Shown here: positions 1,010 through 26,700 of the stretch, in pieces
Position numbering within the stretch: the first letter of the stretch is position 1
Layout: each line of letters opens with the position of its first letter
DNA from: a bacterium
GTDB taxonomy: Bacteria; UBA8248
Assembly (NCBI GenBank): GCA_965213685.1
Contig: CBDBZY010000064.1
Coordinates: 1,120,001-1,184,000, forward strand
DNA length: 64,000 nucleotides
Reading direction: 5' to 3'
Notes under the pieces: model-generated
Seen by the model: the letters and a program-made list of their open reading frames with translations, nothing else
The model's database searches: none
Told to the model about the DNA's origin: nothing
Translations under genes and position numbers: made by a program

Positions 1010-2160
1010 TCTTAGTGAGAGTTTGTGACCTTGCCTTTACAGCAGGCAAGATCTATGCCATCACAATTGATTGGTCTTGCTGGGTAATGCATAGCTGATC
1101 GAGCTCCTCTCAAGCACATGATGGAGGATCGTAGGAGGGACAAGTTTGTGTCTGCATCTAATCCACTGCATTGTCTTGCTGTAGGGGCTGTTATGGTTTT
1201 CAGCAATGAGTGAGGCCAGTCTTTTGTAGACTACCACTGCAGTTGTTTCCATGCCTCTAGCAGTTGAGAACACCAGGGAAGAGAATCTTCCATGCTTTAT
1301 TTCACGGATCTGTTGGTCATATGCCCTTCTCTTCTCCATCTCATTCTTTTAAAGTGAGGTAATTGTAGTGGGTCTGTGGAAAGGGGTTGAATACCCTGAT
1401 ATTAAAAAATGCACATTGCCTACTATTTCCCTCAACAGCTACGTATATTGAGTTGAGCACCATCCTCTCGGTTTGCCATTCTGTGGGATAGCAATAGGCA
1501 ATACTGAAAGCCAACTGGAAGCACCTTTTTCCGAAGACACAGCTAATGCTCTCTGCAAATGTGTGGATAACTGGCTTGCAAATCAGCTGTCACTAGGATG
1601 AGTACTCTTGGCTCTGTTGTAGAATGAAAGCAACTAGAGGTGCACAGATCTCCTCAGACATCTGATTCAGGACTGTTGTCTGCTTGGAGGGGTCAACAAT
1701 TCCGAGTCCCCCTAATCTTGTTGGCAGAGCCATTAGTTCTCTGGCTACATCACTGAAGGGGCTTTGGCAAGTGAGAGATCACTTAATACAAGCAGGCCCA
1801 ATATATGGCTACTATCCCAATCCATCTAAAATTTGGCTGGTAGTCGAAAATGATTATCATGCAGAGGCAGCAACACTCTTTGAAGACTCTGGAGTGGCTG
1901 TCATATCTGAAGGCAGGAGACACCTAGGAGCAGACATTGGGAAGAAAACATTTGTGGAGAGTTACATCCAGCAGAAAGTCTTAACATGGACACATGAAGT
2001 GGAACATCTCGCTTCAATTGCTAAATACATGTATCACCCAGCCACATGCAGCTTATGCTGCCTTCATTTGTGGACTCAGTAGTAAGTGGTGGTATCTAGT
2101 GAAGAACCCTCCCAGGGAAAGCTGATCTATATCAACAAGCAAACATTTCTTCCATACCAT
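1010..2160. mobile_element. CRE-like (restriction-like endonuclease, RLE) non-LTR retrotransposon remnant with an inverted 5' part
   Basis: Minus strand 1010-1748 encodes RELMALPTRLGGLGI and the C-terminal EKRRAYDQQIREI..SLVFST..GM..YKRLASLIA region. Plus strand 1749-2160 encodes the upstream RT C-terminal part GPIYGYYPNPSK..EGRRHLGA. Confidence 0.75.
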
Positions 2161-2506
2161 ACTATATCCAGGTGAACTTAAGACCAATAATATCTGGACA
2201 GTAAATCCTCCCATCTTGGCTCCTCTGCTGATGGAGAGGTGTTCCAGTCGACCCCTAAAGGGGTTCTGACAGCATAAGATTTGGGGGATCTGCCTGTGAG
2301 ATTCGCCAACGACCACTGGTAGTACATAGGAAAGAATGGGGAGATAAACTCTTGTCCTGGGTAATGGCCTGGTGCTTAGTGTACTGGACTCCCAGTCTCT
2401 TGGTCCACATTTGATGCCCGGACGGAAGTTTATCCTTCCTTCCTTTCCTTCTTCACCTGTGTAAGCAGAGTAATTTTTACCATACCATCTCCAGGTGAAC
2501 TAAGAC
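2155..2506 (+). repeat. Terminally redundant ~323-bp unit: structured core plus degenerate tRNA-like domain (unit A)
   Basis: ~30-bp direct repeats at 2155-2184 and 2478-2506. Core 2205-2289 is similar to 23571-23651. Degenerate A/B-box-like tRNA domain at ~2354-2423 is closed by GATAAACT/AGTTTATC. Confidence 0.65.
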
Positions 2507-2765
2507 TTCCTAAATCCTAATACATGCAGAGTTACAACTACAAGATGTTATGCCCACTCATTGTGAGAAATGGTAGCCATACATATGTGGTTGAGAGCTA
2601 GTCCACAGTTGAGGTTGGGGTTTGGATGTGGATTATCTCCAATGTTTTCCTTCTCCATAAGTGGGGCTCAATCTCTCTGATCCTGGTGCCTTCCCAGTGA
2701 CTCTGACTCATTAACTTCTAACCTTTCCACTATGTAATACTCAAATGGCTGTTCTAGCATTGACC

Positions 2766-3057
2766 TAGTCTTTCAAGCTAGACCCTACTCCTAGCGCGAA
2801 GTGCAAGTAGGGTCTAGCAGAGGTCATTAAATTCTGACCAGTCAAATTCAGTAGAGCAGTAATTAGACGTAATATTATCCTCATGTTAAGTATGTGTGAA
2901 ACCACTGCTGGTGCCAATATAGGCCTACATAAAGTAAAGGTATGTGATAAGTGGCTGCATAAGGACATGTCAAACCTCTTGGGCAATGCATACTAATAAC
3001 ATCTGCTAGACCCTACTCACTCTTCGTGCTCGGAGTAGGGTCTAGCTTGATAGACTA
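2766..3057. mobile_element. MITE with TAGTCT..AGACTA ends and 9-bp TSD
   Basis: TSD GCATTGACC at 2757-2765 and 3058-3066. Each TIR holds an internal palindrome (GCTAGACCCTACT..AGTAGGGTCTAGC). A half copy lies at ~53245-53312. Confidence 0.9.
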
Positions 3058-3124
3058 GCATTGACCACACACCCAGATGTCTGGGCAGAGCCAGTTTTAG
3101 ATGTATCACATCCTACACCATCAT

Positions 3125-3450
3125 TGCATAACTTACCTGTCACTCTCCCTGTATATGATGAGTGACTGAATTTACCAATTCTTCTTTGCCCCTCAACCTC
3201 AGTGGCATTTAACCTTCCTAACCTCCCACAAATCGGATATGTATTCTTTCACAATGTTTTCTTCCCATAGTTCACATCCTAGCACAAATGAAGTCTTCTC
3301 AACATCACTCAAAGAATCAAAACCCTTCAAAGTCTCTCCTAGCAAGTTCATAAGTAGCTATAAATGCATACCTACTGTCTTTATACACTGGACACTCCCA
3401 AAGAACATGAACCACACTCTCACACTCAAAAGCATCACATAGTGTACACT
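3125..3450 (-). mobile_element. Degenerate LINE C-terminal fragment, same family as 46616-47455
   Basis: Shares blocks such as accttcctaacctcccacaaatcg and acactccca with 46740-47120. Confidence 0.65.
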
Positions 3451-4279
3451 CTGTCTTGCTCCCCTGTAGCAATGAGCTTCTATCAGGTTATCAAGTATTG
3501 CTCCATTCAATGGTGGAAATGAAGACTACGACTAATGTAGTACATTTAACAAATGGCAAAAATGGAATTGAACACATCTGACTTTCTCAAGTGGCCTTGT
3601 TGAACAGACCTTACAATAAAAGGAGAGGAAGATGGTTTGCAAATTGTCTGGCAAGTTTTCCTTTGTAATATCGTACAACTTCTTATACATAAAACAACTG
3701 ATGTTCTTTCATGTGTACTATTCATGGGATGATCCCTATATACTCATTTGGATATCCAATGTCCAGACCATATTAATCAAGTACTGACAAGCATAAGGAC
3801 AAAAAGCAATGAAAAGCACTAAGGTGCAAACCCTCGGCGCAGTTGCATTGCATGGTACAACAGCCTGCACAGATGAAGCAAGCATTATTGGTGTAAGTTC
3901 ACTCAATTGGGCTCCTAGTGTCCTGCCTTGTCTGGCATTTTGTTCACGTTGCAATGTTTCGTATACTCTCCGTTTCACGTCCGTACAGCCAGTGCGATAA
4001 TGGTCCCGCGTAAGCACATGCGTGTACTAGACTCTAGCATGTGCACATGTATACGCATACAACAAAAACTGACATACATGTAGTACAGTAACAATCATAT
4101 AACTTGGTGAGGCTAACTGGTTGCTACATATACTAGCTTTGTGTAGCTACTAGTCATTGGTCACCATTCAAGTGCATATATACATGTATATATATATAGC
4201 ATCATCAAACAAACAGGGTTAGTACAAACAACGTAAAATCTACACAAACTCTGGTGACAGCTTTGTACGAAACGTGCAC

Positions 4280-5560
4280 CTATACGAGTGTTCCTTCAAC
4301 TGGGTCTATTGCATATGCATTACTAAGTCTCCTCTCTGTTGGTACTGTAGAAGTGTCTCCCTCTTCCCTTGCAATTATCTCAACAGTCATTTGGCTCTGT
4401 GCGGGAACCCTAGAAGTGTCTCCATCTTGTGAGAGTAACTCAATGGAAGTTAATCTGGTCGTTTGACATTGGCTCTGCATTGGTGCTTGTGAGTCTGACG
4501 ATTCTTCCTGCGTTACCCCAGCACAGAAGTGTCCACATGTAAGAATGTAAATAAAATAATAAGGATAGCGACGAATGCTACGCCTTGTCAGAGACTGAAT
4601 GATAGGGTTGATTGCAGCATTTGAAATTATAGTGACAAAACCTATTAGGGGAATGGCTGGTGGAATATTCTCATAACCAACAAAGAATCCTGCAAAAACT
4701 ATTAAAATACCAGGAGTAAAGCAGACCAGTTGTGAAACAAGCAAGAGCGAGAATACTCTTGTAAGAGTTCTCTCATGTTGCTGTTTCTTTACATTCAGTT
4801 CAAAAAGATCTTGTCGTGTTATGGTAAATTGTTTTTGCCTCTTATGTCTTCTCTTTAAGAAGCGCTTCACGTATATCCAAGTCCATAAAGTGAACACGAT
4901 AATAGCTGTAATTGGTAGCAGAGCTTCAATGCCCACTACCACAACATACACTCGTTGTCCTATCCATCCAAAAGTGCAAACTCCCAGGGTGTCTGAATAT
5001 CTCAGCTCACCAAATCCATACAAGGGAGTAGAAGCAAGAATAAGGGGCACAATAGAGACAATGCTTGCCAAAAGAAGAGCCCTCCATGGTTTCATCCACT
5101 GCTCATACTTCACAGCAAACACAATGTAAAGGAAGCGGTCAAATGACACCAGTGCTAGCAGATGAATGGTTAGAAACAGGAATACAGACAGAAAAAGACC
5201 AACGGCTGTACACACTCCCTGTCTAGTCTCGTCTGTGTCTCCGAATATCCACCCTCCTCCAATCAACGCAGCCGTGTAAAACGGTATAGACAAAAGTGCT
5301 TCCAGAAAATCAACTACACCTAGTCCTAGTAGAAACACTGATGACGGCTGTTGTAGCAGTTTTCTGTCCTTTATAAATATGCCAATCACCAAAATGTTCC
5401 ACGAGAAGGCCAAGACAAAGATGACAACGTACGCGAGGGCAATAACCCCGGCAACGGGTTCACTGTGCGGTATCTGCCACATACACTCGTTCAGGCGTGA
5501 AGAGATCTCACATCCACAACCTCCCGAGCCATTCTTCCAGTCACAGCCAGAGACATTCAT
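4280..5560 (-). CDS. Intronless rhodopsin-class (class A) GPCR, orphan
   Basis: 426-aa ORF with seven hydrophobic segments, TM1 Asn (WNILV), TM2 Asp (LGVVD), DRF at the end of TM3, ECL2 Cys, CFTP in TM6, NPIIQ in TM7 and N-terminal N-glycosylation sequons. Confidence 0.95.
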   Translation of the reverse strand: MNVSGCDWKNGSGGCGCEISSRLNECMWQIPHSEPVAGVIALAYVVIFVLAFSWNILVIGIFIKDRKLLQQPSSVFLLGLGVVDFLEALLSIPFYTAALIGGGWIFGDTDETRQGVCTAVGLFLSVFLFLTIHLLALVSFDRFLYIVFAVKYEQWMKPWRALLLASIVSIVPLILASTPLYGFGELRYSDTLGVCTFGWIGQRVYVVVVGIEALLPITAIIVFTLWTWIYVKRFLKRRHKRQKQFTITRQDLFELNVKKQQHERTLTRVFSLLLVSQLVCFTPGILIVFAGFFVGYENIPPAIPLIGFVTIISNAAINPIIQSLTRRSIRRYPYYFIYILTCGHFCAGVTQEESSDSQAPMQSQCQTTRLTSIELLSQDGDTSRVPAQSQMTVEIIAREEGDTSTVPTERRLSNAYAIDPVEGTLV

Positions 5561-6588
5561 TTTGTAACAGTACTAGTGGGATGATGACCTTCGGCGGACG
5601 TCGTACCTAATGAATACACGCAAGTCTCGATCCCGGCCATATCCCGTCCCCACCCCGTCACGTGCGCCCACACGGAATCTAGATATCTCGTTATGAGATT
5701 AAAATTGCGGGTTCATCCCAAGCTAAGTGCCGCGTTAACCCTCTCTTCGCGCACTTTCACAGCCACTGAAACACAAGTATGCAGCACCTCGAGGTAAAGA
5801 AAGTAGATGTCTAATACTGGTATAGCTTCATACGCAAAATGCGCATTTTGGCCCATGTGTAGCGGCGTAGGGGGAAGTAGACTGTCAAAACTAAGAGCTC
5901 TTCTCACACGTTTGAAGTAACGGAGGACAGAGGCCTAAATTTGCAGGGTTCATAGAGAGGGTTGCACCTGGGATTCCCCCCTGAAAATCTCTAACATCAT
6001 TAGATTTTAAGCATTGTGATAGCAGACGGGAATTGGTAGAGCATCCGTTTCCATAGGAATTTATAGCTACTCACGAGTCGGCTTAGTTCATACAAATTGT
6101 GGCACTGCAGAAAGTGTTGCACAATCCTAATTTGTGTTACAAACTAATTGGCTGCTTAGTACTTCGAGTCAGTGTTTGGTGCAATGTGAGCTTTGATCTA
6201 AAATACCAAAGGATCTAACACAGACTGCCAGTTGTGCTTACAGAATTATTCTGAGCTCCAGTTATCTCTAATTGTGCATGATTATGATGGCACAAGTACA
6301 CGTACACAGATGGAGTGCAGTGATGTGAATCAGTAAATAGGTTTAAGATAAGTCAATGGAGAGAGTGATATGTACTTCTGGCAGCTGTGGAGGAGCCTGC
6401 AAGGATATTGTGAACATCACTTTTCGAACTTTGTGTATACGTCTTTTGTGAGCGTATAGTGAAGAATGGAGCTGGGAATGGATGTGGTACAAGCCATATA
6501 ATAAGAAGTATCAGCATTCCTGAAGTTCCAGATAACTTTCACATTGAGATACTATACAATGAAGCACTTAATAACTCTAAATGTTGTA

Positions 6589-7770
6589 ATCAGAGAGTCG
6601 GTAGACTCTCTATGTAGGGATGGCGCCGACACGCCCATAGTGCGTGTACATAGGAAAGCCTCCTTAACTCGCGAACGCTCGCGTTCTAAGCCTTTCTGGG
6701 CCCCTAGCTATTCTATTCCAGTGGTTCGCTACCCAACAATACCCCCCAAGTAGCTAAAATGCATCCCTTGACTTACTACCAGAAAACTCTCCAAAGGTCG
6801 TTTTGTCTTTCTTCCTATTCTTCTTCTTCTTCTTCTTCTTAAGAGACTTCTTTAGACTAACGTATCTCAAAACTGGCTGAAGTAATCACCGTAGTTCTTT
6901 CACGGATCCACTGTAATCACTACCAAGTACGATCTGTGCTAATAAAACTCTTAGTACGTTCCCAAATGGGCAGAAACTAGAAGTCCCCGACAACTTCCCA
7001 TATTTGGGAAACCATTTTGTAATAGTTACTGTCACGTGGCGCAAACGGTAAGCACGTGAGGGCGGGCCTCGCGAAGCGTTAAGCCACGCCTATTAATTAT
7101 AGGTTCGCGAGACGTAGCAAAGGCTGCTTCATATCTGATGGCGCGTTCGAGCTGCGTCTTACTTCACTATACTATTATGTAGCGGGGATGAGTTGGCCAG
7201 TTAGATACAGTGAGGTACATATGTAGCTACTCTAGCTCAAGAATTTTTAGAGGGGCTCAGCCCCCCAACTTCAGAAATGATGGTGTTCAAGCCCCGCCTT
7301 AGCAATGGCTCTTATGACCACTGATTTGTTTGCTGGAATCTGAAAGAAGCTTCAGTGGCAAGAACAATCTACCTTTTAATGGTACCCTTGTGCTAAAAAA
7401 GGGATGCAAACAAGTATATAAAACATTTTCAAAAAATGTATAGGGATGTAGGGATGGCCATGCCAAAAACTACAGAAACTAGGTGTAGGGATGGCAGTGT
7501 GCAGGGAAGACATGTTATACAAAGACTACACAACTAACCCCATCCCTACATCTTTTTTTTTGGCTCAAAAATTGCTCTTCCCAGTAATCTTGTAGCAAAA
7601 CTCGCAGAATGATTTCAGATATAAAAAAAGATGTAGGGATGGGGTTAGTTGTGTAGTCTTTGTATAACATGTCTTCCCTGCACACTGCCATCCCTACACC
7701 TAGTTTCTGTAGTTTTTGGCATGGCCATCCCTACATCCCTATACATTTTTTGAAAATGTTTTATATACTT
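6589..7770. mobile_element. Near-complete copy of a non-autonomous Helentron/Helitron2-like dispersed element
   Basis: Terminal hairpin AGAGAGTC-ggta-GACTCTCT (6592-6611) next to ATGTAGGGATGG. That motif recurs in both orientations at the other end. At least 8 partial copies occur elsewhere in the window. Confidence 0.7.
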
Positions 7771-8127
7771 TAATTACATGTTTGCATATAACTCTATTAT
7801 CCAAAAGGGACTGGAGACAAGTAAATTGAAAAGATTGCAAATTGCGGAGGGGAGGGATTACATGAAAAGGTATGGAGACATGGCCTGGATGCAGAGTACA
7901 TGCTATAATAGACATGGGAACAATGACACGAGTATGCCATGTCTGATTACGTAATACAAGCCCACTGTTGAGCAGGTCCATATAGGAGTACCACCTAGGA
8001 AATCACAGTTCTGCATATGTGGAAATATGACAGAGACAACTAATGACCACGAACAGCACCACGAAAAGGATCAAAATACCTGTTGTTACACTCATTGTGC
8101 AATCCCTATATTACCCTCCATAAGTTG

Positions 8128-10585
8128 TGTCACGCCGTAGACGGTCCCCCGCCAAAGTTGGTCCCCCCGGACCATCCGTGGCTGCCGTATCTGGTCCCCT
8201 CTTGCCGTACTTGGTCCCACCCTCCTATTTTCTAATAATGGCTTTATAATAATTATTGTCTTTTGGATTGTGTTGTGTTGTTATACCGTTTGTTTGTTGT
8301 ACTGCCAGGCCTACATTGATAATGTTAACCGAATGTAACCGAAGCACGTCAGCTGTACTGCGAAAGGCTAGGTCAAAGGTAGAAGCGATCCAATGAGATC
8401 CATGATGATCCCAGGCGCAAGTTCTACCGCTGGTGCTTCACTTTACTGAAGATCCAGTCATGGATGCCAAGACAGAGTTGCTGCAGAATGCTGTGTTAGT
8501 GTTTCATCTTTTGCTTGGAAAGTCATCTTGGTTTTGGAGTCATCTTGGTTTTGTACAGCATGTTCACAAAGGAAGTGATTGCTTTTGTAACCTACAGCAT
8601 TGTTGTAGTGGTAAATGTTGCATATGATTTACAAACTCTACAATTCATTAATTAACGAGTTATGATCAAGCAACTACATACATGTAGTAGGTTCACATTA
8701 ACTGGCATTCGTCTGCAACTCGCGCTGTACTAATAAGAATGAGCAACCTTTATGCAGATACCAAAACCTTCTGGAAATCTGTGAAACTTTTAAACAAAAA
8801 TCGGGATACCATACCACCCCTGCAATGTTCTGATGATATATTTGCTGCAAGTGACAGAGACAAGGCAAATATGTTAAATGATTTCTTTGCTACATGCTGG
8901 AACATATCTCAACCCCCTCTAAGTGAGGATATGTTCTGCGCAATGCTCTCTGATATTCCACATGAATGTACAGTGTCTCCTGATGAAGTTTTGAAATGCC
9001 TCAATGTAAAAAAGGCAAGTTTGATGGTGTAGATGGAATATCAGCATATATGTTCAAAGCAACAGCTGAAAGCATAGCCTCTCCTCTAGCAAAAGTCTTT
9101 AGCCTGTCTCTCTTCTGTAAAGTTCCCTATGCTGTGGAAGTCAGCTCGTGTTGTTCCCATCCTAAAGTCAGGCAACAGATCAGATGTATCTAGCTACAGA
9201 CCAATTTCTCTGCTACCTATTGTTAGCAAGATGCTGGAAAGATATGTGTACACATTACTGTGGGATCATCTGATCAATCATGCTCCTCTCTCTGTCAATC
9301 AATGGGGCTTTCAATCAGGAAGGTCCACTGTAACATCACTACTTGCAACTTCTCATGATTGGCATAGATTTCTGGATCAGCGGAAGGATGTCATGTGCAT
9401 CTTCCTTGACTTTCGGAAAGCCTTTGATACTGTTCCCCATCACAGACTCATGACAAGACTGGTTGAACTTGGAATACACCCTACTCTTTTAGCTTGGCTG
9501 TGTAGCTATCTGAGCAGAATATGTCAACATGTTGTAAATGGTCAATCCTCCTCATAATACGTACTATCAGGTGTACCACAAGGCTCTGTTTTAGGGCAAC
9601 ATCTCTATGTGGACGTCAATTAATCTGATGTCTCTGAATACTGAGAAGTGCAAATGTATGCTGTTAACAAATAAAAGGAACTCCGACAACCCACCACTTT
9701 TGCTGAACAATAAAGTTCTTGAACAGGTAAAACAATACAAATATCTTGGTGTCACCTTTCATCTATCCTTCGCTGTTCCCCACATATTGAGCGAATTTGC
9801 AAATCTGCAAGAAAGAAGTTGGGAAAAATTTATAGAAACTTTTCAAACACTTCCTCATCACCTCACGTTATTCTACATCTGTATTTGTCACTCATTTGTC
9901 CATCACTTGAGTACGCTTCTCAGGTCTGGGACCCCCACTCATCAAAGGACGTTAAGGTTCTTGAGAACATTCAAAAGTTTGCTTTGAGGATTGCCACAAA
10001 ACAGTACTATGAAAGATGAAATTTTACTTAACACATTTCAGCTCCCATCTTTGGCAAACAGAAGGAACTTCTTATCATTATGTACATTTTTTAGTATTGT
10101 AAACGATTTTGTTTATTTTCCACCACTACAAGGTACACCAAAACCTCTTCAAACTCACCATCCTCACCGGCACCACCATCACCGAGCACTCATGGTCCCT
10201 TTTGCCAACCATACCACTTTGTTATCATCATTTCTTTTTAAATGTGCCAAGCTTTGGAATAACCTACCTCATGATGCTGTCTCAGCCAGTAATATACGTA
10301 ATTGTTACTTATATCTCCTTAATGTATTTATTGTTTTGGTTGCACTTGTATATTAGCTTACAGCTATTAGTGCTGCCTTGCCATGTGCAGAAAGTTATTA
10401 TAAAGAACTTTATGGGGTACGTAACTGCCAAGGCAACAACATACAAGCTCCAGTAAGAATGAACGAGCTTTTGATACAAGGGTGGGGGGCCACTTACGGC
10501 GCCACGGACGGTCCTAGGGGGGACCAAATATTCCGCCGTGGACGGTCCGGGGAGACCAAGTATTCTACTGTGGACGGTCCGAGGG
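8128..10585. mobile_element. DNA-transposon remnant with GGACGGTCC-type subterminal repeats, interrupted by a LINE
   Basis: Inverted clusters of gacggtcc/ggtcccc repeats at 8128-8220 and 10484-10585. The right terminus and TSD were not recovered. Confidence 0.5.
8700..10330 (+). mobile_element. CR1/L2-type LINE reverse transcriptase pseudogene, 5'-truncated and frameshifted
   Basis: Overlapping ORFs give WKSARVVPILKSG..YRPISLLPIVSKMLER, QWGF, FLDFRKAFDTVPH, SGVPQGSVLG, YKYLGV, LEYASQVWDP and LWNNLP. Confidence 0.92.
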
Positions 10586-10686
10586 GCGAATTTTTATCTG
10601 ACGCACCCCTTTCGAACTTTATAGAAATGCTTTAGCGTGAGGTCAAGGTTCACAATAAAGTTTGGAGGTGCGCGCAGCCGCAGTTG

Positions 10687-11290
10687 CAGCTACTACGAGA
10701 CGAAAGAGACACTTTCTCTGATGGAACTTTCTACTGGCCTTGTTGCAGCTAGACCATGGGCGTATGCACGTGGCAGAGCGGACGGATACTCTTCTACTGA
10801 GTCGTTTCCTATCTGAGATGGTGGGATGGGTAGCCCTTTCAGTACATGTTGCCGACAGCTACAGGTCAGGTGGAGGACAAGAAGCTGCAGGAACACTGCC
10901 TGAACGCTCTTTGTGTTTTTATGGGTACGGTGGGCATTATCTGGGGTCGAATGTTCACTGATGGATGCGTCAAGGGAAGTAGGACAGGGCTGCGCGACAG
11001 CTACTACGAGACGAAGGAGACATTTTCTCTGATGGTGTTTAAGTTTTGAATATCGACGGGAGGCACAAACCTGCTTATTCTCGCGAGACTAAAACCTGCT
11101 ATGCTGAACTTCTACTGGCCTTGTTGCAGCTAGACGTCACGTGGCAGAGCAGACGGATACTCTTCTACCGAGTCGCTTCCTATCTGTCATGGCAGGATGG
11201 ATAGCCCCTTCAGCACATGTTGCCGACTGCTACAGGTCAGGTAGAGGACAAGGAGCTGCAGGAACACTGCCTGAACGCTGTTTGTTTTTG
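10687..11290. repeat. Imperfect tandem duplication of a ~230-bp block
   Basis: cagctactacgagacgaa..ctactggccttgttgcagctagac..ggaacactgcctgaacgct at 10687-10910 and again at 10998-11280, the second copy with an insertion. Confidence 0.8.
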
Positions 11291-15459: not shown

Positions 15460-16009
15460 CAGGAGCCCATAAGCGCCGCAAAGCGGCGCCAAGGAGCGTC
15501 CAACACCGCATGATAGCGTGGAACAGCGATGTACTAACCACAGCAGCCAGGTTATGCCCTTATTTGGATCGCAGTTACGTAACAGCTACTACAGAGGGTA
15601 CACAAGTGTACAACTACTACTGTAGCAACTGCCCTATATGGTCAATACTGAGAGCCTGTTTAGGACATCGCTGTTCTCCGTAGTACGCTCCTTGGCGCCG
15701 CTTTGCGGCGCTTATGGGCTTTTTTTTTTTTTTTTTTTTTTTTTTCTATACAAGTGAGATAAGAAGTACAGTACAAAGATATGGGAGGCAACATGTAAAT
15801 AGCTGTAAGCTAATACAAGACATGAGCCCAGTGCAGTAAGTTATGCTTAAAAACAGAAACAGATGATGATGATCTTATGTCTACTGGTAAAGTATTCCAA
15901 ACAGTAATAACGCTAGGTACATATGAAAAATAGAAGTAGTTGGTGCGAGAATGGAGTCTGTGAAATACAGATGAATTGTTTCTCTGTGACAAATGCTGGT
16001 GGGCTCCTG
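15460..16009. mobile_element. P-type MITE (CAGG..CCTG ends, 7-bp TSD) with its right TIR split by a LINE
   Basis: TIR CAGGAGCCCATAAGCGCCGCAAAGCGGCGCCAAGGAGCGT. TSD TTATTAC at 15453-15459 and 16010-16016. Confidence 0.85.
15721..15999 (-). mobile_element. Short 5'-truncated LINE 3' end with poly(A) tail
   Basis: T25 at 15721-15745, SRTNYFYFSYVPSVITVWNTLP C-terminus, and TGGGCT duplicated at 15715-15720 and 16000-16005. Confidence 0.85.
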
Positions 16010-16056
16010 TTATTACCAATCCATATATACACCTACTACCGTAGGTGTGATGATGA

Positions 16057-16264
<208 letters not shown>

Positions 16265-16467
16265 AGTCACCATAACAGTGTTGTAGGTGTTGGACTTGCA
16301 AATCAATGTCTACAAACAGACTTGCCGCACCACACTGTAACGTCTCAATCCTCCAAAGGAAGTGACGAGAGAACCGCTCGCAGCAGCCACGCCTTCTCAT
16401 ACATGACGAGAAGGCTTGACTTCGCTATTTGCTAGTGTGCAGCGCCGCTACCAGGTGAAGTGGGTGC

Positions 16468-16740
16468 ATGGATTTATAATATATCCCCATCGGCATTTAT
16501 AAATCCGAGGCTGGATTTACATATCTCCTAGGTATTTTTAAATCCGAGGATGGATCTCCTCAGTATTTATACATCCAAGGCTGGATTTACAAATCTCTAT
16601 TTGCATTTATGTTAGTGTTCATATATTTGAGTTTGGATTTACAAATCCTCGTCAGTATTTATTTGTCCAGGCTGGATTTACGAACGATATCAACAATTAT
16701 AAATACCAACTGAGATTATTGTGGAATATAAATCCTGACT
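16468..16740. repeat. Degenerate minisatellite built on GGATTTA(T/C)AAATCC palindromes
   Basis: Repeated ggctggatttac and tttataaatcc units. Confidence 0.6.
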
Positions 16741-17194
16741 TTCTCGCTAGTTTTGACACAAACGACACCCCATAGAGTATTAAAAGCGTCCGGCGGAGAC
16801 AGGTTTCAATTATTTACTCCGTGACAGGCAATACCGGGTACAATTATCCCTTTGACTCAATGTATGGTAATGGTTTTCACTATTCAACAACGTAGGGCTT
16901 GTACTGCATAATTAGTGGTGTACTTTCTCATATTTGCACGAACTCCAAGAGCATTGGTCTCTCGCATTCCTTTTAAAGAGGTAAAGTCGCTATCGCTTCT
17001 TCCATTCATAAAGGACGCATGGTGTGCTTCCTCCATGTACCCACAAGTTTCTTCAACGTCTGAAAAGCACCTCAGATTATTTATCAAGAGATGATCGCGT
17101 GTGAAGTGCTCCGCTGTGTGCTTGAAATTCACCGCGATCACCTCTTGATAAATAATATTTGCGGTTATTCGATTAATTAACTTGATCGTGCGAT

Positions 17195-17315
17195 CCTACC
17201 CAATCACGTGACCGCTTCGCGCACGTGCAATGGTGAGCGCTGCAGCTGATCAGGGCTAGGCTAAGGATCCGTGGGTTACAGCCGTCAGGACGCTTTCTTG
17301 CGCTACTGAGTACGT
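17195..17315 (+). promoter_or_regulatory. Candidate promoter and non-coding first exon of the CABIT gene
   Basis: CpG-rich patch with CCAAT fused to E-box CACGTG (17200-17212), a second CACGTG at 17222 and a donor-like GTACGT at 17310. It lies ~960 bp upstream of the acceptor preceding the ATG. Confidence 0.45.
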
Positions 17316-18271
17316 TTGTTGTACGTGTTAAAGTACTTCCACAAGGTTCATGACTCAAAGGCTTTAGAGTGTGAACCGTACAAGAACCTGTTTTGATCAG
17401 CATAACGTACTGGGACTGATCCTTTCCTTCTCTCCACATATTTTGGCCTTGATGTATTGCCCCTTTTTGGTTGTTATAAACCATAATGTTATGGCGAAGT
17501 GTAGTCCACTGCCTAGATTGTACAACTTAGAGGCCTCTCCTGACATGGAGGAGTAAGCTGCTACAAAGGTTTGCTGAAGAATACATGTTCCCTGGTATCT
17601 GTGGAGTGGTTTACATATGTAAAGTAGATCTTTGATATGGGAAAAGTGAGCAAGGGGACTACATGTTTTTACATGCATGCATGCTTTTGCATGCACATAT
17701 ACACATTGTATACTACTGCATCCCATGGCTGCATGTGACTGAACATGTTTATATAAATACATGTACCTAGATAAGCATGTATGATATAAGTGCATATGTA
17801 CGTACATGTTTAGTGACTTTTGTTGTAGGTGCATGGTATCTCTTCACTGGATAGTCAATTTTTTTGAGTGTCAAAGGATCTTGCAAGTAGGGTAGTGTTG
17901 CTTGTGCCACTAAAGAGAGTCACATGAGTGATGGAAGTATTTCATGGCATTGCTGAAATATTTGCACTTCCAAGTTGGTAAAATTGAAGTGTCATACTGC
18001 TACAAGGAGATCCTTGTCTACGGTGTACCTATGTAGAGGCACATGTATTTAGTGTTGGTTTTTGCTCATTGGATAGATGATAAGTTAATCATTCTGTAGT
18101 ACTGTGGATTAACCTTTGTGGCTGATTCTCTCACCACCTAAAAATTGAATGGTCAGACTGTACAGGTGTATGAATCTAACACTTGGCCAATTCAGGGAGC
18201 AAAGTAGGTGTTTTGGATGTGTCCTAGTTGCAGGTTGTCTGCTTAATCATTCTACTTTACCACTTGCAGAA

Positions 18272-18377
18272 ATGTCTGAGAGTGATGAAGAATATGAAGA
18301 CATTGACCTAAAGCTGATTTCTAGGACTCAGTCCAACAGTGTCAACATTCAAGAGTCCTTCACAAAGCAGAGATCAG
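18272..18377 (+). CDS. CABIT-domain protein, first coding exon (MSESDEEYEDIDL..)
   Basis: Acceptor ttgcag at 18269, ATG at 18272, phase-1 donor gtacc matching the phase of the next exon. Contains an acidic YEDI motif. Confidence 0.6.
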
Positions 18378-19001
18378 GTACCACCACTCTTGTTCAATGG
18401 AGCTGTTTTTTTTCCATGTGCATTAGTTTTGAAGTCTACTTTTCTCATCCCTGAAAATCATAGTTCATGTGTTAAGAAATGTGTGATTTCATTGGTTTAC
18501 TATCAGAGAGTTGGTAAATTTTATATGTACATGTATGTATATGTAGGAATGGTACTGACATGCCTGTAGTGCATGTACATGTACATATGAAGCTTTCTAA
18601 ACTTTCAAAATAATGATAGCGTGAAATGCATAACCTGTGTCCCTACATCTTTCTTTCATGTAGCACAAATACTCTTCCACATTGTACATGTTATGTCTAA
18701 CTCAGCTATCCTGACAGACACCTACACCCTATTAGTATACAAGAAATTAAGTGTTGTAGGGATTATTTTGCATGTACACATCACATGTACATATAACTTG
18801 TTCATCACCACTCCACTGGTTGCAGAGGGCTACATTTTCATCCTGTGCTTTTAGGATTGCTATTGTTACATTCCTTAACATTTATATCTATACTTTTATA
18901 TGTGTGCAGCATTAGAACCACCCTTCTCCTGTACTGGCTTTATAGTATGTATAATTTACACTGAGTAGGGCTGTATAGAAAATACATTATAATTTTAATA
19001 G

Positions 19002-19516
19002 TTATACCACGGCTACCAGCAGGTTATGGCAAATACAAAAAGCCATAGTTGCATAATCCTGAGGGCATAGCCCAAGGGATTATGCAACTATTGCTGAATG
19101 AATTCTCCATAACCCACTGGTAGCCATGGTATAATTCACTTATACCATGGTAGCCATAAAACTGGAGTCGAGCAACACATTTACCTGCCATTGTGGATTG
19201 CTGGCCGACTTGCGCACATAGACACTAGTGGTCACGTCAGTAACCAGTTTTCCCACCATCGTAGATTGCCAGTGGACTTGTGTTGACACTACCATGGGCG
19301 AGAAGGAGCATCTGACTTCCTCTGTCAGCGCTAGCATGGGGCGAGAAGGAGCGTCTGATTTTCTCCGCCAACGTACTGCGTGGGATTATCTCTACATCAC
19401 ACAGGATATATCCTGTATACCACACAGGAAACCCTGTTAAAAATCACAGGTCGTTGCGGTTATGCTGAATAAACCATGGGGCGGCACCTTTGAAAATATG
19501 ACCAACCATGGTATAA
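19002..19516. mobile_element. Non-autonomous element with a 133-bp terminal palindrome, possibly Crypton-associated
   Basis: TTATACCA(C/T)GG occurs at 19002 and 19140 and inverted at 19134 and 19516. 19002-19134 folds into one hairpin. Confidence 0.6.
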
Positions 19517-20589
19517 ACATCTGCAAGCAAGGTGGATGCAGCACTATGTTCTGAACAGCAAATTCAGTTGTAACCTGGCTACCAAGGTACATGTAGCAGT
19601 CACATTCTGTGGTGGATGGTACTTTGTATGTAAATACACGTATTGAGTGTCATGTGGATATCTAGTGCTACATGCATGTATGAACCTTGTGAACATAAAC
19701 TGTCCGCAGTACCCACCTTACTTCACTACACCACTGTTGGCAGGCACTATCCAAGGCCTCTTACCTACGTAGTTTTGACAGTAGGTGTCCGTCCCCTCAA
19801 CTGTAGACCCACGTTAATGGAGTTTGACATACTTAGCGTGGAGAGCTTGGCTGCTATGTCATGAAGGTGCAGTGCATAGTACCACACACACATGACCTGG
19901 CTCATCATAGGTATAGGCACACGGAGGATAGTGATGCAGTATGGGACTCGATAGGCACACTAGGTACCAGGCAGGGAGGAGGGACATCCAACTATCGGGC
20001 ATTGTTAACCATGCATGCACAGTTCATCACGTGCAAGGAAGGTGTGCAGACAGCGCACAGGGCAGTATTGTCAGATGACCCCCCAGCCAAAACCCATCAT
20101 CCACCTGTTAAGGAGCAGGACAGCTACAGCTGTAGATCTAGATGGTCTCCATCAACTAGCTGCGAGATGTGATAGCCTGGGCTGGCCTTACAATACATTC
20201 CAAGGAAGGGGTCTTTGTATCCCTTAGGTCACATGGGCTACTCAGTATGCATGCTCCAGGTCAACTGCATGTCACACACCTATCACATGATCTGGGTAGG
20301 CACGTGACAGTGCAAAAGTGGGCATATGAAGCCAGCAGCCAAGCTTCTCTATATGTTGATCTGTACAAGTGTACATATGCATTTATTTGCAACCTTGCAC
20401 TTTTGTCTGGATAGTTGCAATGTCCACATTTCAAGGAGTCCAGTATTAGTAGTAGACCATTTGAAGGACATGGGACCCAATTTAAAGTTGCATACATGTA
20501 CATGAACAATCATGTGCATAGTGCACCACAACTTGAAAGAAAGAAAGAAAAGAACAGAGAAGAAAGAAAGAAGAATTACACACTATAAA

Positions 20590-20920
20590 ATAGACAACAA
20601 CCTCAACGGCTTAGAAAAACATAGTTTAATATTTGGAGAACAGCCTCAACGGCTTAGAAAAATAAATATATGTAACAACCTCATTGGCTTAGAAAAATAT
20701 ACATCTGCAACAACCTCAATGGCTTAGAAAAATATATATTTTTTTAAAAAACAAAGCAACAAGCCTACACATATAAGAATAAACTCAGAACGAAAGGCAG
20801 ATGGTCCACATGCCCAACCTTGAGAAATATATATTTTTTTAAAAAACAAAGCAACAAGCCTACACATAAGAATAAACTCAGAATGAAAGGCAGATGGTCC
20901 ACATGCCCAACCTTGAGAGT
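20590..20920. repeat. Tandem repeats: about four ~34-40-bp units and two ~95-bp units
   Basis: caacctcaacggcttagaaaa repeated; aaaaacaaagcaacaagcctacac..cccaaccttgaga duplicated. Confidence 0.8.
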
Positions 20921-21599
20921 TGGAAATGGGGCTTAAAGATCTTTGATGGTGCACCAACTCTCACCACCCATGTGGACCATCTACCATCCATACACAAGAC
21001 GCACAAACACAGAGCACAATCCCAAAAACCAGGCACAAGCAACAGCTCACCTTCTAGCTAAAGACAATTCAAAAAATGATGTGCAGCTGTACATTGGCTT
21101 AGATATAGTACATAGTACAAGAGTAGTGATCACATGATAGTGTGGTCATGTTGACTGACCACACCCCTATGACCATGTACTCCAGTATCTACATGTCTAC
21201 ATAGGTCATGTCTTACTTCCAGTGGAATGCAAATCCCTTCTAATGCATGCCTCTTCATACTCACACCATACTTACTGAACAAATTTATATGTTTTCTACA
21301 TGTACATGTAGTTGGCTTTATAACAATCGTATTGCAAAAAATTAGTGTTTAATACTGTCCTGCCAGTTAATTGACTTCAAAGCCATTTGCAGATGGATGG
21401 ATGGATGGATGGATGGTCATCCACTATAGTTGTGTATGCAGCTCATTGCTGGAGGTTCTAGGTGGTTTTGCTGGAACTGTTCTCATCTTGTAGTTCTGTT
21501 TACTTTTTGCTGTATAACTGCTCCACATTCATGCCAGACCAGTGAATAATAATGTGGTAGAACCAATGAATTGTAGAGCTTTCTGACTAGGAGAATGTC

Positions 21600-22900
21600 A
21601 CACAATTTCTGCATCTGAGACACTCCTCAAAACGTTTCCTCCTGACTACAGCAGTCTGCTCAGTCCAAGTAAGTTTAGTAGTAAACAATCTTGGTTGGCT
21701 AGGTAAGCTCATGTTGCTTATTGTTCTACATACACCAGATAACTTTAATAATTCTTGCCAAACGTTTCGACCACTCTGCATGGTCCTATTCAGTGGCAAG
21801 GTACAAAACCAGAAGCAACAGTCAATTTATATGCAAGCAACTCAAGTAATTTTGTTGTCTACCATGACTGCCAGGAACCTCAAAGTGTTTCTTCTCAGAA
21901 TGGCTTGTCCATCCAAGACCACCTTGACCTCACCCAACTCCTTGGCTCATCACCTACTCAGTAGAATCTCTTCTACAGTTTATTCTTGTAAACTACAGTA
22001 ATTTGCATGGAAACCTCAGCAACATCGCTCATTAGGTTGTTTTGTAAGACAGCAGAACTGTCACTGGAGCAATAGAGGATATCATCAGCTTATATTTTCA
22101 CTGTACAGCACTGGACTACATGAAGCAAGTCATTCACATACACATTGAACAATAGTGGGCCTAGTATGGACAACGCTATATTGGAACTACTGACTTTGGC
22201 ATTGGTGTAGCCATTGGCATACTTAAATTCATCGGGTATCTGCCCACTTTCTATTCTAGACAGAAGGTAAATAGATATGTTAGATGATTCCTGGGACAGC
22301 CATCTTCAGGAGCCTAGCCCTAATATCATTCAGACTAGTAGCCTTGCTAGTGTCTAATCCGTGGAGCAGTATCTGGACATTGCCTTCAACTTTCTCTGAA
22401 CTAAAATTCCCTGCATCTTCAGTAAGCATCTCTGGCAGTATTCCACAATCAAGATCCACTAAATAATGTTCCGCTGGTCTGTTACGTAGATTTCCTTGGA
22501 GGGCTACTAGATAAATCTGTTTTCCGTTGGTTCTTGCAGCTGAGTGCCTTTATTCAATTTACTCCAGAGCTTTCTGGGATTGTGTCTTGACTCTTACTCA
22601 ACGTTGTAGTTTGGCCTTCCTCATTCTTATGACATCTTTCCCTTTCCTCATCTCTTCTGCCTGATTTAGCCTTAGCACATATACATGTATAGGTGCATAG
22701 TTTCTTGTCTTCATCAGTATCCTGATCTTTGCATCAATCCTTGAGGAAAGACTACTTTCTTCCTCACTTTCAAATGGAAACAGTACTGTTCCAATAATTC
22801 CATCTATCATGGACACCATCAGAAGAATCCATGCCACAGGGCCATGATCAAAAATCATGAACAAGAACTTCAGAATCAGATTTGCTATAGCACCTTATAT
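21600..22900 (-). mobile_element. Highly degenerate LINE RT remnant
   Basis: SILGPLLFNVYVNDL and an ADD motif on the minus strand near 22080-22170. Boundaries are approximate. Confidence 0.65.
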
Positions 22901-23370
22901 AATATCAGGACTGTTGCTTCCTTTGCATAAGCAAGGCTGTGGTCACTCAAACCTACATGTACATGTATTTCCTTGCAGCCCACAGTTATAGAGCTATGTA
23001 ATTGTACATGTAGCTGGGTCCAAACAAAGCTGAGTATATTCCAAATCTGATTCACTCTGGGTATGTGACCAATTGGGTGAGGTTAGATCAGACATTATTT
23101 GCAACCACTCAAATTTGGGTTAACCATAGGTGAAGTCACCACAAATCCTTCTTGAAGTGCTCTCTCCACTGTAATATTGTGTGCTACATGTACAGTACGT
23201 TCTGCATCCACAGTAGGGCTTGTACAGTGCAAGAGCTGCCCTTCGGTAAAAATATAATTATGTCTTATGAGATTGCCATTCCTGGATTTAAGATATACAG
23301 GAAATCAGAACAGGAATAGGGTGGTGGGTTCCTCATGATGTGAAAGTGTGACAGGTTGCCACAGATACAT

Positions 23371-23439
23371 GCCATAGCTTAGGTGGTAGAGCACTGACAG
23401 CTAAAGTCAGAGGCCCTGGTTCAATCCTGGGTGGCTGCC
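23371..23439 (+). ncRNA. tRNA-like (pseudo-tRNA) domain, 5'-clipped, with CTA at the anticodon position
   Basis: TAGCTTAGGTGGTAGAGC D-arm, CTGAC-agCTAaa-GTCAG, GGTTCAATCC B-box, followed by T7. Confidence 0.7.
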
Positions 23440-23683
23440 GGTTTTTTTACAGTTCTCTAATAATATTCCCAAGCCTTTCCTCATGCATAACGTAGCTTGC
23501 GTGTTGTGTTCGGTGGCTCCCTAGAGGGAGACCCAGCTTCATGTGCACTGCTATGAATATATAGAATATTTCATTCAGTGTGGCTCCTCCCCTGATGGAG
23601 AGGAGTTACCGGTCAATCCCTAGCAGGATTCTGACAGCACATACGGAGTGATATTGAGAATTGTGAAGGCTGGCTGTCACCCG

Positions 23684-23753
23684 GTGGCCATAGCTCAGGT
23701 GGTAGAGCACTGACAGCTAAAGTCAGGCTCCAGTTCAATCCCAGGTGGCTGCC
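23684..23753 (+). ncRNA. tRNA-like (pseudo-tRNA) domain with CTA at the anticodon position
   Basis: Acceptor GTGGCCA/TGGCTGC, D-arm, 5-bp anticodon stem with loop AGCTAAA, degenerate T-arm. Lacks U33. Confidence 0.7.
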
Positions 23754-26700
23754 GGTTTGTCACAGTTCTCTAAAAATATTCCCAAGCCTTTCTTCATGTA
23801 GTGCAAGGGAACCCAGAATTAGGATCTGCATTCATCTCCACATCACTTGAACACAAGAGCAACATCACGATCACAGCCCTAGGAGAGGACCAATATTACC
23901 ACATATAGTGACACCTCCTGCCATCAAACATAACTGGTCATCAGGCAGGTCTTGACAGAGCACTGCGATACAAACAATGAGAGGCATGATAGATACCTCA
24001 CTCAGCAACAAATGACTAGAGCAGAGAACAGCTAGGAGAATAGAGAAAATGACTCTTTGTATCTGCCATGTCTGTGCATGCTTGTACCATGGAAGCCTTA
24101 GAAAACAAAGGCACTGCCCGCAGTGTATATCCGCTAAGAGTACTAACCACAGCCTCATACATTCCATTGTCAAGGGCAACAAATTATACATGGTAATTTG
24201 CTTTCTACACTTCCGCCGGCAGTTTGCATTACTGTACCAGTTATCACTGTGTGTAGGAAGGTCACTCCAATACTACAAAGTTAATGGTACACCAGAACAT
24301 CCACATCTACATGCACTGCCCAGTTTGTATTTTTCTTGGTATTCAATGGCACTGCTGCCACTTGAACCTTCAGGGTTTGCTCCTCCATTACCACTAGTCC
24401 AAAGCGCGTTTTTGTCGCTGGTTGTGGCTGCTCCACAGTTGTGCTGATCCTGACTGATTGTAGCTGTGGTTGTACAGGCTGCTCCTTCGTTGAATTCATT
24501 GTTACATCACACTCCGAGAGTCTGGCTCACAAGACTAGAGTTCATGCACCTCTGGCAGATCTCCACATCATACACAGGTCTAAATAGCGACTGGGCCCGT
24601 AGCAATGCTCAGCAGGTCCTCTGGGTCCATGACTGCAAATGAGCTACTTCACTGCATTGTGGCTAGAACGTACACAGCCAATAACATGATCCTGTTACAT
24701 TCATGTGCACATGCTTGTACATTAGCGATGCATAAATTTTTGACAACAGGTTGTGTCAGCATTGAAACCACATTAAGGTACTACAGTGTACACAGGCGCA
24801 ACACAGGAATGTACCAGTGCTGTGACATTCCTGTGCTATACTACTGTGCATTCCCTGTGTATAGTCATGTATCGTAAATGTGTACACTCTTAGAATAGGA
24901 ATTGAGACAGGCAACTAATTTGGATTCCTTTGTTTACCTTTTAGTGTCTCTCTTTGGCTGGAATGGGGGTGCAAAGAAAGTAATAAGAGTACATACACAG
25001 TACACATTGAGAGCATACAGAAAAGTCATGTACAAAGAGCAATTTATCCGAAGTAACGTGCTCACGCTCTACAATAGTTTTAATGTCCCATCCAACAAAT
25101 GATCTATATAAAATGTTGGCAGAGGTTGTAGCCCAACTTCATTTCCAAACCTGAGGTATCCATTGATGCAATCCTGGCTTCAATCTCTTCTTTTGTAACT
25201 TTTGTGAGGTGTTCCATCAGAGATCATAGCAAATACTTGTAAGGACCTAATAGAACTGTATGAAGGGTCTGGAGTACCTGTAAAGTGTGGCAACAGACCA
25301 AACATTTTGAGACACTATTGTACTTACTGTCTATACTCAATAATTATACCTGTGAAGATCCAATGCAAGCTCTAAGAGGGCATTGGGATCTTCGCTGATG
25401 CTGTTCTTAGTGCAGATTTTTGTCCCGTTCTGTGTGCTGAGACTCTATGGTTGTCATCTAGGCAAGTGTGTGATGCATTAATCGTGGTGTCCCAATGACA
25501 GTTGGATCACCATTCCTGTCAAGCTATGTAACCATGCAGACCATAAAGTGCTGCTCAATTTCACAAGGAGTGCTCACCCTACACATCCTACAGAACAATC
25601 TGGCTGATGGGTCTGGTTATTGTGGTTTCAGAGGCACGTGGGTTATCACAGACAACACAGCTAGAACACAGGAGTAACAACAAGCACCTCATCCTGGAGA
25701 AAGGCGTCATAAGTCACCATACCTTCCTTCGCCAAACCTTTCAGCTCTTCCACAATTGGTACAGCCATTTGAATACAGTCCACCTACAAAACATAGAAAC
25801 AGTAATACTAGGTTATTCTTTTCACAAACATGTGTTGTTAGCACCTTGTTTGAACTACAAATGTGGTTGATATGTTTTGGATTTTCCACGTTTGGTAGAC
25901 CAGCAAGTTTGAGGCACCAGCTGTCAAACTTTTCCACTGTTTAGACATACATGTATTTCCACTAGTATCATCTGAGTGTAGGATTAGTGGAAGCATTAGG
26001 ACAGGTCGATCAGCTGCAAGACTTTTGTGGGGTGTGGGGTAATGTACATGTATGCACTGTACTCCTTTGAATAGACAACATAGTTTATAAAACAGTAAAG
26101 ATGAAATACAATGTAGACACTTACTTCAGTAGTCATAGCAGTACAGAGACCTGAATCAGGAAGTTGGTGCTTTATTATGGCTGGTGGAGGAACACCTGCC
26201 TTGATGGCACTCAAGTGTGCTGCTTGTATAGGGCACTGGACTTTGGCAATCATCTATCATGGCCACCGTTGTAACAATAGCACTAATCATGATGGTAACT
26301 TGCAGCCTAGTGATCGTTTGGAGTTGGATAATGCTGACCTAACAACTGCAGTGAGGTCTGTCTTGTCCCTGTGCACATCAATAGCTGAGCAGACAAGAAG
26401 GATAGAGCAGCAACTTGCAGGAGTAGAACAGGAACAGTACAGAATTACTGAGGTCGTAAAAGAGGTAGATTCCTCATGTCCCCTGAAAATGGATACCACA
26501 AAACTATTCTGCCTCCCACTCACACGAGATCCAGATTCATCAGATATCCAACAATGTCATGTTATTCCATTGGCTAACATGTACTGATCATGCTTTTTAT
26601 TATAGACGTCCGTAGTAAGAGTCATGGCGAGAATGAGTGCACAGGAAACGTTCAAAATTGAAATTGCCTTGAAGTTTGTTAATGGTAGACTGACTGAGTT

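Follow-up and report, generated by a model that had tools for sequence, protein, structure and literature searches.

We analysed a stretch of 64,000 nucleotides (the window), which corresponds to positions 1120001-1184000 of contig CBDBZY010000064.1 (C64) in the bacterial assembly GCA_965213685.1, and found two short units, unit A (2155-2513) and unit B (23371-23800), that very probably belong to two families of SINE-type retroposons (short interspersed elements) with a shared structured RNA domain. To the fuller statement, according to which such elements are in addition mobilised by a reverse transcriptase (RT) of the type carried by Penelope-like elements (PLEs), we give a probability of about 0.5. 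C64 is treated here as sponge-like host DNA binned with the bacterium, and the family counts and partner searches reported below cover 4.9 Mb of eukaryote-like contigs, that is part of the host genome only. We regard both families as probably new; the motifs of the described SINE domains CORE, V and Deu do not appear to resemble the block shared by A and B.

In the reading that we favour, the RNA of these elements would be modular, with a 5' leader, a three-way junction of ~85 nt, a long stem holding tRNA-derived sequence (B) or a hairpin (A), and a family-specific 3' tail. The junction module, the only part common to A and B, corresponds in its behaviour to the "highly conserved central domain" that SINE superfamilies carry, and may serve as a binding platform for the RT or for a ribonucleoprotein (RNP) or stability factor. 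Copying by an RT/endonuclease of the PLE type would produce 5' truncation, partial tandems resembling pseudo-long-terminal-repeats (pseudo-LTRs, pLTRs), short extensions and inverted head-to-head copies, with priming, in B only, in (ACATGT)n microsatellites by means of the CAUGUA 3' end. What appears as terminal redundancy would then be a partial upstream copy that accompanies full-length insertions, and not the trace of a circle.

A probable three-way junction shared by two dissimilar units

By searching the window for repeats, we could confirm that both units are terminally redundant with a period of ~320 bp, as a preliminary description of this DNA had proposed. Unit A holds direct repeats (2155-2178 and 2478-2501) that are 92% identical and spaced by 323 nt. 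Unit B holds three collinear repeat blocks (23371-23485 versus 23687-23798) spaced by 313-316 nt, with identities of 98% for 23371-23410/23687-23726 and 91% for 23443-23485/23756-23798. Each unit consists of a partial copy followed by a full copy, with the parts listed here.

2155..2184, plus strand: upstream partial copy of A, 30 nt of the A 3' end, repeated at 2478-2506 with a spacing of 323; a pLTR-like short extension
2186..2513, plus strand: full unit A, ~328 nt; minimum free energy (MFE) -109.9 kcal/mol, z -2.48 against 100 shuffles
2205..2289, plus strand: three-way junction of A; helix P1 2205-2218/2275-2289, shared block 2218-2274, P2 2222-2239, P3 2247-2270
2328..2449, plus strand: long hairpin domain of A; stem arms 2340-2350 and 2427-2435, degenerate B-box-like motif 2408-2418, inverted repeat with 33-nt arms
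2450..2513, plus strand: subfamily-specific 3' tail of A; 13 tail matches, all within A copies, other A subfamilies having other tails
23371..23487, plus strand: upstream partial unit of B (T1); tRNA-like module 23371-23435, a run of seven T, 45-nt tail; repeated at 23687-23800
23488..23800, plus strand: full unit B, ~313 nt, ending ..CTTCATGTA; MFE -116.8 kcal/mol, z -3.74
23571..23651, plus strand: three-way junction of B; P1 23571-23582/23640-23651, shared block 23582-23639, P2 23584-23605, P3 23611-23635
23656..23770, plus strand: long stem of B with tRNA-like module T2; stem 23656-23666/23760-23770, T2 23684-23753

The 30-nt piece upstream of A is not a target-site duplication, because homologous extensions also precede other A copies. 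Within the 5' region of B, we noticed a degenerate second copy of the P3 portion of the shared block (23511-23529 versus 23610-23628, 74% over 19 nt, spacing 99), which suggests an old internal duplication.

Sensitive pairwise blastn returned a sole similarity between A and B, 2217-2274 versus 23581-23639 (81.4% over 59 columns, E 1.7e-11), which corresponds to the ~60-nt common block of the preliminary description. The 14-16 nt flanking this block on each side are entirely different in A and B, yet they pair within each unit. The ends of the units do not coincide with the shared block but are found upstream of it, by ~20 nt in A and by ~85 nt in B.

We compared the duplexes formed by these flanks with those of shuffled sequences. 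First, the P1 duplex of A reached -13.2 kcal/mol against -6.2 ± 2.3 kcal/mol for shuffled flanks, with 12 of 2000 shuffles as low, and the P1 duplex of B reached -11.3 kcal/mol against -3.9 ± 2.0 kcal/mol, with 7 of 2000 as low. Second, the long downstream stem gave -8.2 kcal/mol in A (29/2000 shuffles as low) and -14.8 kcal/mol in B (0/2000). Thus, the two stems first recognised by eye, one closing the block with a different sequence in each unit and another long one further downstream, pair in both units. Third, the three-way junction was recovered in the minimum-energy fold of A.

By applying a 27-pair model of P1, P2 and P3 to 28 copies (8 A-type copies from diverged subfamilies and 20 B-type copies), we found that 88.4% of the cells were paired, compared to 38-52% when the partners were slid by 1-3 columns, and that 8 pairs showed changes on both sides. 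Realigning 36 copies with Infernal gave 88.6% of paired cells and both-side changes at 9 pairs, with 37-52% as the range for slid partners over the two alignments. These values support the proposal of a structure-conserved RNA module in the shared block. The double changes mostly follow the split between A and B, and concern three inner and two outer pairs of P1 as well as a U-A/C-G double change in P3. In addition, a C-G to A-U change in P2 is private to one old A-like copy (C64:1329k) and, by our reading of the alignment, the C4 subfamily pairs CCACCC/GGGTGG where the window subfamily pairs CCUCCC/GGGGGG. For six A copies, RNAalifold likewise predicted a hairpin in the middle and a long rod, 5 of the 93 pairs being compensated.

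Two observations temper this structural evidence. The covariation comes down mostly to one A-versus-B split, which leaves few independent events, and the variation within each family is mainly the CG to TG/CA decay of dead copies. The three-way-junction fold is thus supported but not proven. The bases of the junction and of the loops are strongly conserved, including two CUGAYGG motifs, and the helices covary. Since these bases were kept while P1 and one P3 pair changed with compensation, selection presumably acted on the RNA of the module in the source copies. A search for further block-bearing families with nhmmer and the 58-nt block (E<=10) gave 80 matches, of which 12 were new, all with E>0.6 and noise-like. 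The two exact block patterns matched nothing in prokaryote-centred collections of genome and metagenome contigs, which is uninformative on other animals.

Conserved junction and loop bases together with covarying helices would suit a catalytic RNA no less than an RNA that binds protein, and the preliminary description had taken the core for an unrecognised ribozyme or an RT-recognition structure. A and B would then be retrozyme-like elements with a unit-length, possibly circular RNA, in which either the junction is a self-cleaving ribozyme or processing signal, or the tRNA-like part is cut by RNase P or RNase Z. Units of ~320 nt that are strongly self-paired would also suit this explanation, as 170-400 nt is given for animal retrozymes (PMC7229834). 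However, the CUGANGA core of hammerheads is absent from both strands of each unit, and the boundaries of the units are not at the module. Moreover, Rfam 15 returned 0 matches over the whole window at the gathering score and, at E<=10, none for A and only tRNA and chance matches for B, so that no ribozyme was matched. Ten further A and B copies searched at E<=5 gave tRNA in B only, the miRNA-like matches corresponding to the palindromic microsatellite and to the A hairpin. By eye, hammerhead, HDV-like, hairpin, 5S and 7SL origins were likewise unsupported.

Insertion anatomy and the copying enzyme

By using blastn against the genome, we found 129 high-scoring segment pairs (HSPs) of B in 109 loci (110 loci in the flank counts below) with unrelated flanks. 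First, B has a fixed 3' end, ..CTCATGTA, since 88 HSPs terminate at a single position (window 23800, ..CCTTTCCTCATGTA), after which many copies continue into CATGTA repeats. Second, the 5' starts are scattered over the whole unit in a graded truncation, with hot spots at ACATGT-like stretches beside microsatellite flanks. For A, 55 loci were hit, of which ~30 are A loci and the other 25 are B copies matched via the block only. The A copies share their 3' end and vary at their 5' end, and their 3' tails differ by subfamily.

Copies that end at one 3' position and are truncated to graded extents on their 5' side have the anatomy of a retroposon, not that of circular permutation. The mapping of starts and ends, by which the permutation reading was to be judged, thus turned out against it. 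The remark that the units start at different points of a cycle describes the two window copies and does not extend to the families, in which the 3' end is common and the 5' end varies. Also, the view of A and B as non-autonomous retroelements stands, as both are multicopy and non-coding, with a fixed 3' end and 5' truncation.

We then considered the copies that reach the unit start. For B, there are 20 such loci (TAACGTAGC..), and 16 of them are directly preceded by a 5'-truncated unit with a complete 3' end. When the six loci on contig C18 that share a flank are collapsed, an upstream partial unit is found in 12 of 15 independent full-length B insertions; the remaining ones comprise one copy with a 13-nt extension and two with only microsatellite upstream. 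The junction between the partial and the full unit is nearly constant, with an extra CATGTA unit in one copy only. Of 13 upstream units, 4 (including that of the window copy) start where the tRNA-like module has its 5' end, 6 start in the 3' half of this module, and 3 start further upstream.

The inspected A copies that reach the unit start are preceded by a piece of their own subfamily's 3' end or by a short extension, with the exception of C64:1082k, where an inverted partial copy (C64:1082369-1082511, minus strand) abuts a full-start copy (1082510-1082823, plus strand). We observed the upstream partial unit in the window copy and in the 39k, 51k, C4, C56 and C41 copies. In the window copy it measures 30 nt; three other subfamilies have ~20-27 nt, and two duplicated groups 60-118 nt. 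At five A loci, inverted copies form head-to-head pairs with arms of overlapping content, and no such pair was seen for B.

The longest arrays are of ~2 units for B (C64:1536121-1536635) and ~2.2 units for A (C64:39141-39778), although assemblies may collapse longer ones. In four DNA-like runs, the contig depth summed over B was 880-17000x that of the flanks, which indicates a very abundant repeat and is not a copy number, and the head-to-tail junction was present as DNA in all four. These runs consist of contigs, none of which spans the whole element.

Several copies lie inside larger duplicated blocks, namely the A copies at 39k, 51k, 131k, 144k and 185k of C64 and six B copies on C18, and a search for the empty site of the A copy at C64:51k returned only three filled paralogues. 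On C18, the loci 82035, 302189, 405620, 456807, 605809, 671552 and 715256-716518 form one segmental repeat in which B is present as one unit or as a partial plus a full unit, one copy having a 774-bp insert at the B junction. From these differences in unit number, it appears that the repeated tRNA-like modules recombined with one another once inserted.

Such duplicated blocks, together with the strong fold and the conserved structure, are what one would expect if the units derived, as retropseudogenes or copies, from a host gene for a structured non-coding RNA (transcribed by RNA polymerase III, Pol III, and containing a tRNA-like part) or were segmentally duplicated satellite-like DNA. We hold this to be very unlikely, the least probable of the explanations considered: more than 100 B loci are dispersed with unrelated flanks and 5' truncation, the depth of 880-17000x is that of a very abundant repeat, A and B differ in their tails and in their tRNA-like or hairpin parts, and no Rfam family but tRNA was matched.

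The same anatomy bears on the retrozyme-like explanation. The head-to-tail junctions found as DNA in all four runs are compatible with it, and so are the four long B copies that start at the tRNA-like 5' end, as a cut by RNase P could do so. Nevertheless, a single 3' end combined with 5' truncation of graded extent is unlike circular permutation, the arrays seen do not exceed ~2.2 units, and the location of the 5' hot spots, at ACATGT-like stretches and beside microsatellite flanks, points to microhomology joining rather than to cleavage. We found no positive support for a ribozyme or a circular RNA. That the junction and the tRNA-like or hairpin domain form a new self-cleaving or enzyme-guided motif freeing unit-length RNA, which would make A and B hammerhead-less sponge retrozymes, appears very improbable from the sequences at hand.

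The microsatellite (ACATGT)n is palindromic and is the commonest hexamer array of the eukaryote-like contigs, with 303 arrays of at least 3 units versus 35 for the next one. It flanks several repeat families and is found in the window, for example, around 23800. At least 8 nt of (ACATGT)n were present at 41 of 110 B 5' flanks (37%) and at 27 of 78 B 3' flanks (35%), compared to 429 of 20000 random windows (2.1%).

A regular-expression scan for hammerhead-like motifs gave 7 sites, from which we defined a further family, H, with 81 loci. Its motif is type I hammerhead-like, with CUGAUGA, a 4-bp helix II, GAAAC, a palindromic ACGCGU for helix III and a long helix I, a layout that we take to be the minimal, dimer-acting type of PLE hammerheads. 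H copies are 5' truncated (e.g. C41:265388-265527) and end in ..GGTTCTCGATTTACTCATGTA, with the same terminus ..CTCATGTA as B, followed by (CATGTA)n; microsatellite was present at 17/81 and 10/51 of their flanks. The window itself contains one decayed H copy (~43134-43400, minus strand), in which GAAAC is altered. Rfam gave no hammerhead call for H, whose motif was read by eye. This weakens the reading of H, and it also makes the Rfam silence on A and B weak evidence against a ribozyme.

The eukaryote-like contigs gave 98 RVT_1 matches, many of them to RTs of other than PLE type, and contain three PLE remnants.

C18:31864-32382, 3' region to ~32850, plus strand: PLE remnant with C-terminal GIY-YIG; CUGAAGA..GAAAC hammerhead-like motif downstream
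C41:164647-165315, minus strand: PLE remnant with C-terminal GIY-YIG
C64:192572-198553, minus strand: PLE remnant with N-terminal GIY-YIG, then RT open reading frames (ORFs) in Naiad-like order, broken up by other repeats

Alternatively, A and B could be ordinary SINEs that depend on a long interspersed element (LINE), both being copied by a stringent-type LINE (e.g. CR1, L2 or Rex-like) with a (CATGTA)n tail. Their partial tandems would then have arisen by insertion into the microsatellite tails of older copies, by template jumping and by unequal recombination of the repeated modules. A fixed 3' end with short repeats and graded 5' truncation are classic features of LINEs and SINEs. Nested insertions into microsatellite tails were indeed seen (B beside H, and two B copies split by CATGTA repeats), the C18 copies with one or two units suggest recombination after insertion, and the many RTs of other than PLE type would offer candidate enzymes. 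Tandem-like and palindromic arrangements are also described in bivalves, for up to ~3% of LINE-dependent SINEs (PMC11481361). However, the 12 of 15 independent full-length B insertions with an upstream partial unit and a near-constant junction contrast with this ~3% at most. Furthermore, the inverted A pairs overlap in content, unlike the products of twin priming on a single RNA, A has short homologous extensions without microsatellite, and no LINE sharing the tail was found in the 6 kb downstream of 69 RT/GIY-YIG loci. We regard this explanation as a serious possibility, if a somewhat unlikely one.

We favour copying by a PLE-type enzyme over copying by a LINE because the upstream partial units are frequent and regular, because A forms inverted pairs and has short extensions, and because B and H share a terminus and a target. 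Several points weigh against this preference. First, A has no microsatellite association (1/29 5' flanks and 0/8 3' flanks), and short tandem-repeat tails are usual for LINE-dependent SINEs too. Second, the link with H is a common 8-nt terminus and a common target, not a common enzyme. Third, no autonomous partner sharing the tail of A or B was found within 6 kb downstream of the 69 RT/GIY-YIG loci, where only nearby independent insertions were present; two canonical PLE 3' regions had no similarity to A or B, and no PLE-type ORF with an A or B tail was found. Finally, the T run that follows the tRNA-like module of B argues against efficient transcription through it, as described below.

The tRNA-like domain of B, the hairpin of A and the host-like contigs

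In both units, the preliminary description had placed a tRNA-like domain at the tip of the long stem. This holds for B, whose module was matched by the Rfam tRNA model with 30.4 bits (T1) and 21.3 bits (T2) in the window, and with 47 bits in a less decayed copy on C53. ARAGORN made 0 tRNA calls on the window itself and calls the module of the B family as a tRNA with anticodon CTA, while a subfamily reads CTT, so that an origin from tRNA-Lys is plausible.

The A domain, in contrast, was not called as a tRNA, either by Rfam (E<=10 on the window copy, E<=5 on five A copies elsewhere) or by ARAGORN, and it had no blastn match at E<=1 to the 199 ARAGORN-called tRNA-like sequences of these contigs. 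In five copies it folds as a hairpin rod of ~45 bp, and its sole tRNA trace is the T-arm/B-box-like GGTTCGATGC.

The B module sits 3' of the shared domain in the unit, and 4 of 13 independent long copies start at the module. It is directly followed by a run of five T (T5) in 45 of 58 copies. This arrangement resembles a copied pre-tRNA with its terminator, and it argues against an efficient Pol III read-through from the module. Thus, for B the proposed drive by Pol III appears doubtful.

Other families with tRNA-like repeats are present in these contigs (C18, C2, C41 and others), and the ARAGORN calls include Ala-AGC (30), Ser-AGA (27), Thr-GGT (23) and Thr-AGT (22). In representatives of the Ala and Thr-GGT types, an extended stem, GAGCTGCCTCGG/CCGAGGCAGCTC, encloses the tRNA-like part, with a T run coming after that part, and the stem of the Ser type is similar. 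The alignment of copies of the Ala-, Ser- and Thr-GGT-type families reaches 50-100 nt upstream of the tRNA-like part, which is thus placed behind a leader. Therefore, this layout may be a habit of the genome and not special to A and B. The Ala-type family also ends in (CATGTA)n.

The assembly contains two kinds of contigs, one with ~65% GC and one of 22 contigs below 56% GC, which total 4,895,517 bases and bear animal-type genes, RTs and SINEs. C64, with 44% GC and 1.6 Mb, is the largest contig of the assembly. In the window, an intron-less ORF of 430 amino acids (4280-5572, minus strand) matches the domain of rhodopsin-family G-protein-coupled receptors (GPCRs; 7tm_1, 107.7 bits), and RT fragments are also present. 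The shared block was found in 0 of 43 bacterial relatives, and several public runs containing the stretch are labelled "sponge metagenome", no RNA run being among those listed. C64 was taken as host-like because of this GC split, the GPCR and RT ORFs, the result in the bacterial relatives and the labels of these runs, the low-GC contigs as a whole being eukaryote-like. In practice, this means that the window stems from host contigs binned into a bacterial assembly.

Elsewhere in the window, a large satellite-like array (35402-37439) shows periods of 29, 78 and 107 nt, with CTAGTCTCTCT.. units, and flips to its reverse complement near 36970.

Comparison with known systems

A literature search surfaced no paper on a sponge or PLE-dependent tRNA SINE of this type, and a search for a 12-nt motif gave primer matches only.

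SINE superfamilies are characterised by a central domain of unknown function that stands right after the 5' tRNA head, and in MetaSINEs the domain immediately follows a 5' tRNA promoter (PMC4824008). Like CORE-, V-, Deu-, Ceph- and MetaSINEs, A and B are short, non-coding, multicopy and modular, with a common block of ~60 nt next to a tRNA part and a tail that differ. They also share with SINE superfamilies the fixed 3' end with short repeats and the 5' truncation. Unlike in MetaSINEs, in B the shared domain comes first, with the tRNA-derived part further 3', enclosed by a long stem and with T5 behind it. Also unlike in the described SINE superfamilies, the helix flanking the domain covaries, and most full-length copies have an upstream partial unit. 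Since this helix covaries, a fold can be proposed for the central domain. A and B thus bear on why SINE superfamilies keep such a domain, given that the flanking helix was replaced with its pairing preserved. From an early-branching animal lineage, they offer a concrete candidate fold, that of a three-way junction whose junction bases are invariant, and this fold can be mutated and tested for binding of the RT or of an RNP.

For PLEs, two sources describe 5' truncation, a tandem truncated copy (pLTR), adjacent inverted truncated copies, an extension of 30-40 bp and a bias towards microsatellites, and they report Naiads and most Chlamys as lacking hammerheads (PMC8557442, PMC8969392). Like PLEs and non-autonomous elements that form pseudo-LTRs (e.g. 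MRC1 of Chlamydomonas), A and B are 5' truncated and have a truncated tandem copy beside the full one. A has adjacent inverted truncated copies and short extensions as PLEs do, and B has their bias of insertion into microsatellites. Unlike PLEs, A and B have no ORF and no similarity to the PLEs of these contigs, B carries a tRNA-derived part, and A lacks the microsatellite bias. If a PLE is indeed the partner, A and B would be tRNA-bearing, hammerhead-less PLE dependants, which would widen the range of non-autonomous elements driven by PLEs.

Animal retrozymes are ~300-bp tandem repeats with a type I hammerhead in each monomer, found as dimers to large multimers and giving circular RNA (PMC7229834). 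Retrozymes have been argued, in a 2026 preprint, to derive from PLE pseudo-LTRs (bioRxiv 10.64898/2026.07.22.740005). Like the animal non-LTR retrozymes, A and B have a unit of ~300 nt, a highly self-paired RNA and head-to-tail copies. Unlike them, they have no hammerhead core and do not exceed ~2.2 units, the hammerhead-like motif of this genome being found in H and not in A or B. The likeness to retrozymes seen at the outset thus survives in the insertion anatomy, which resembles that of PLEs, a group tied to animal retrozymes, but not in a hammerhead core. Together, B with its tRNA-derived part and H with its hammerhead-like motif provide a natural comparison within one genome, as the 3' terminus and the palindromic target, (ACATGT)n, are common to both.

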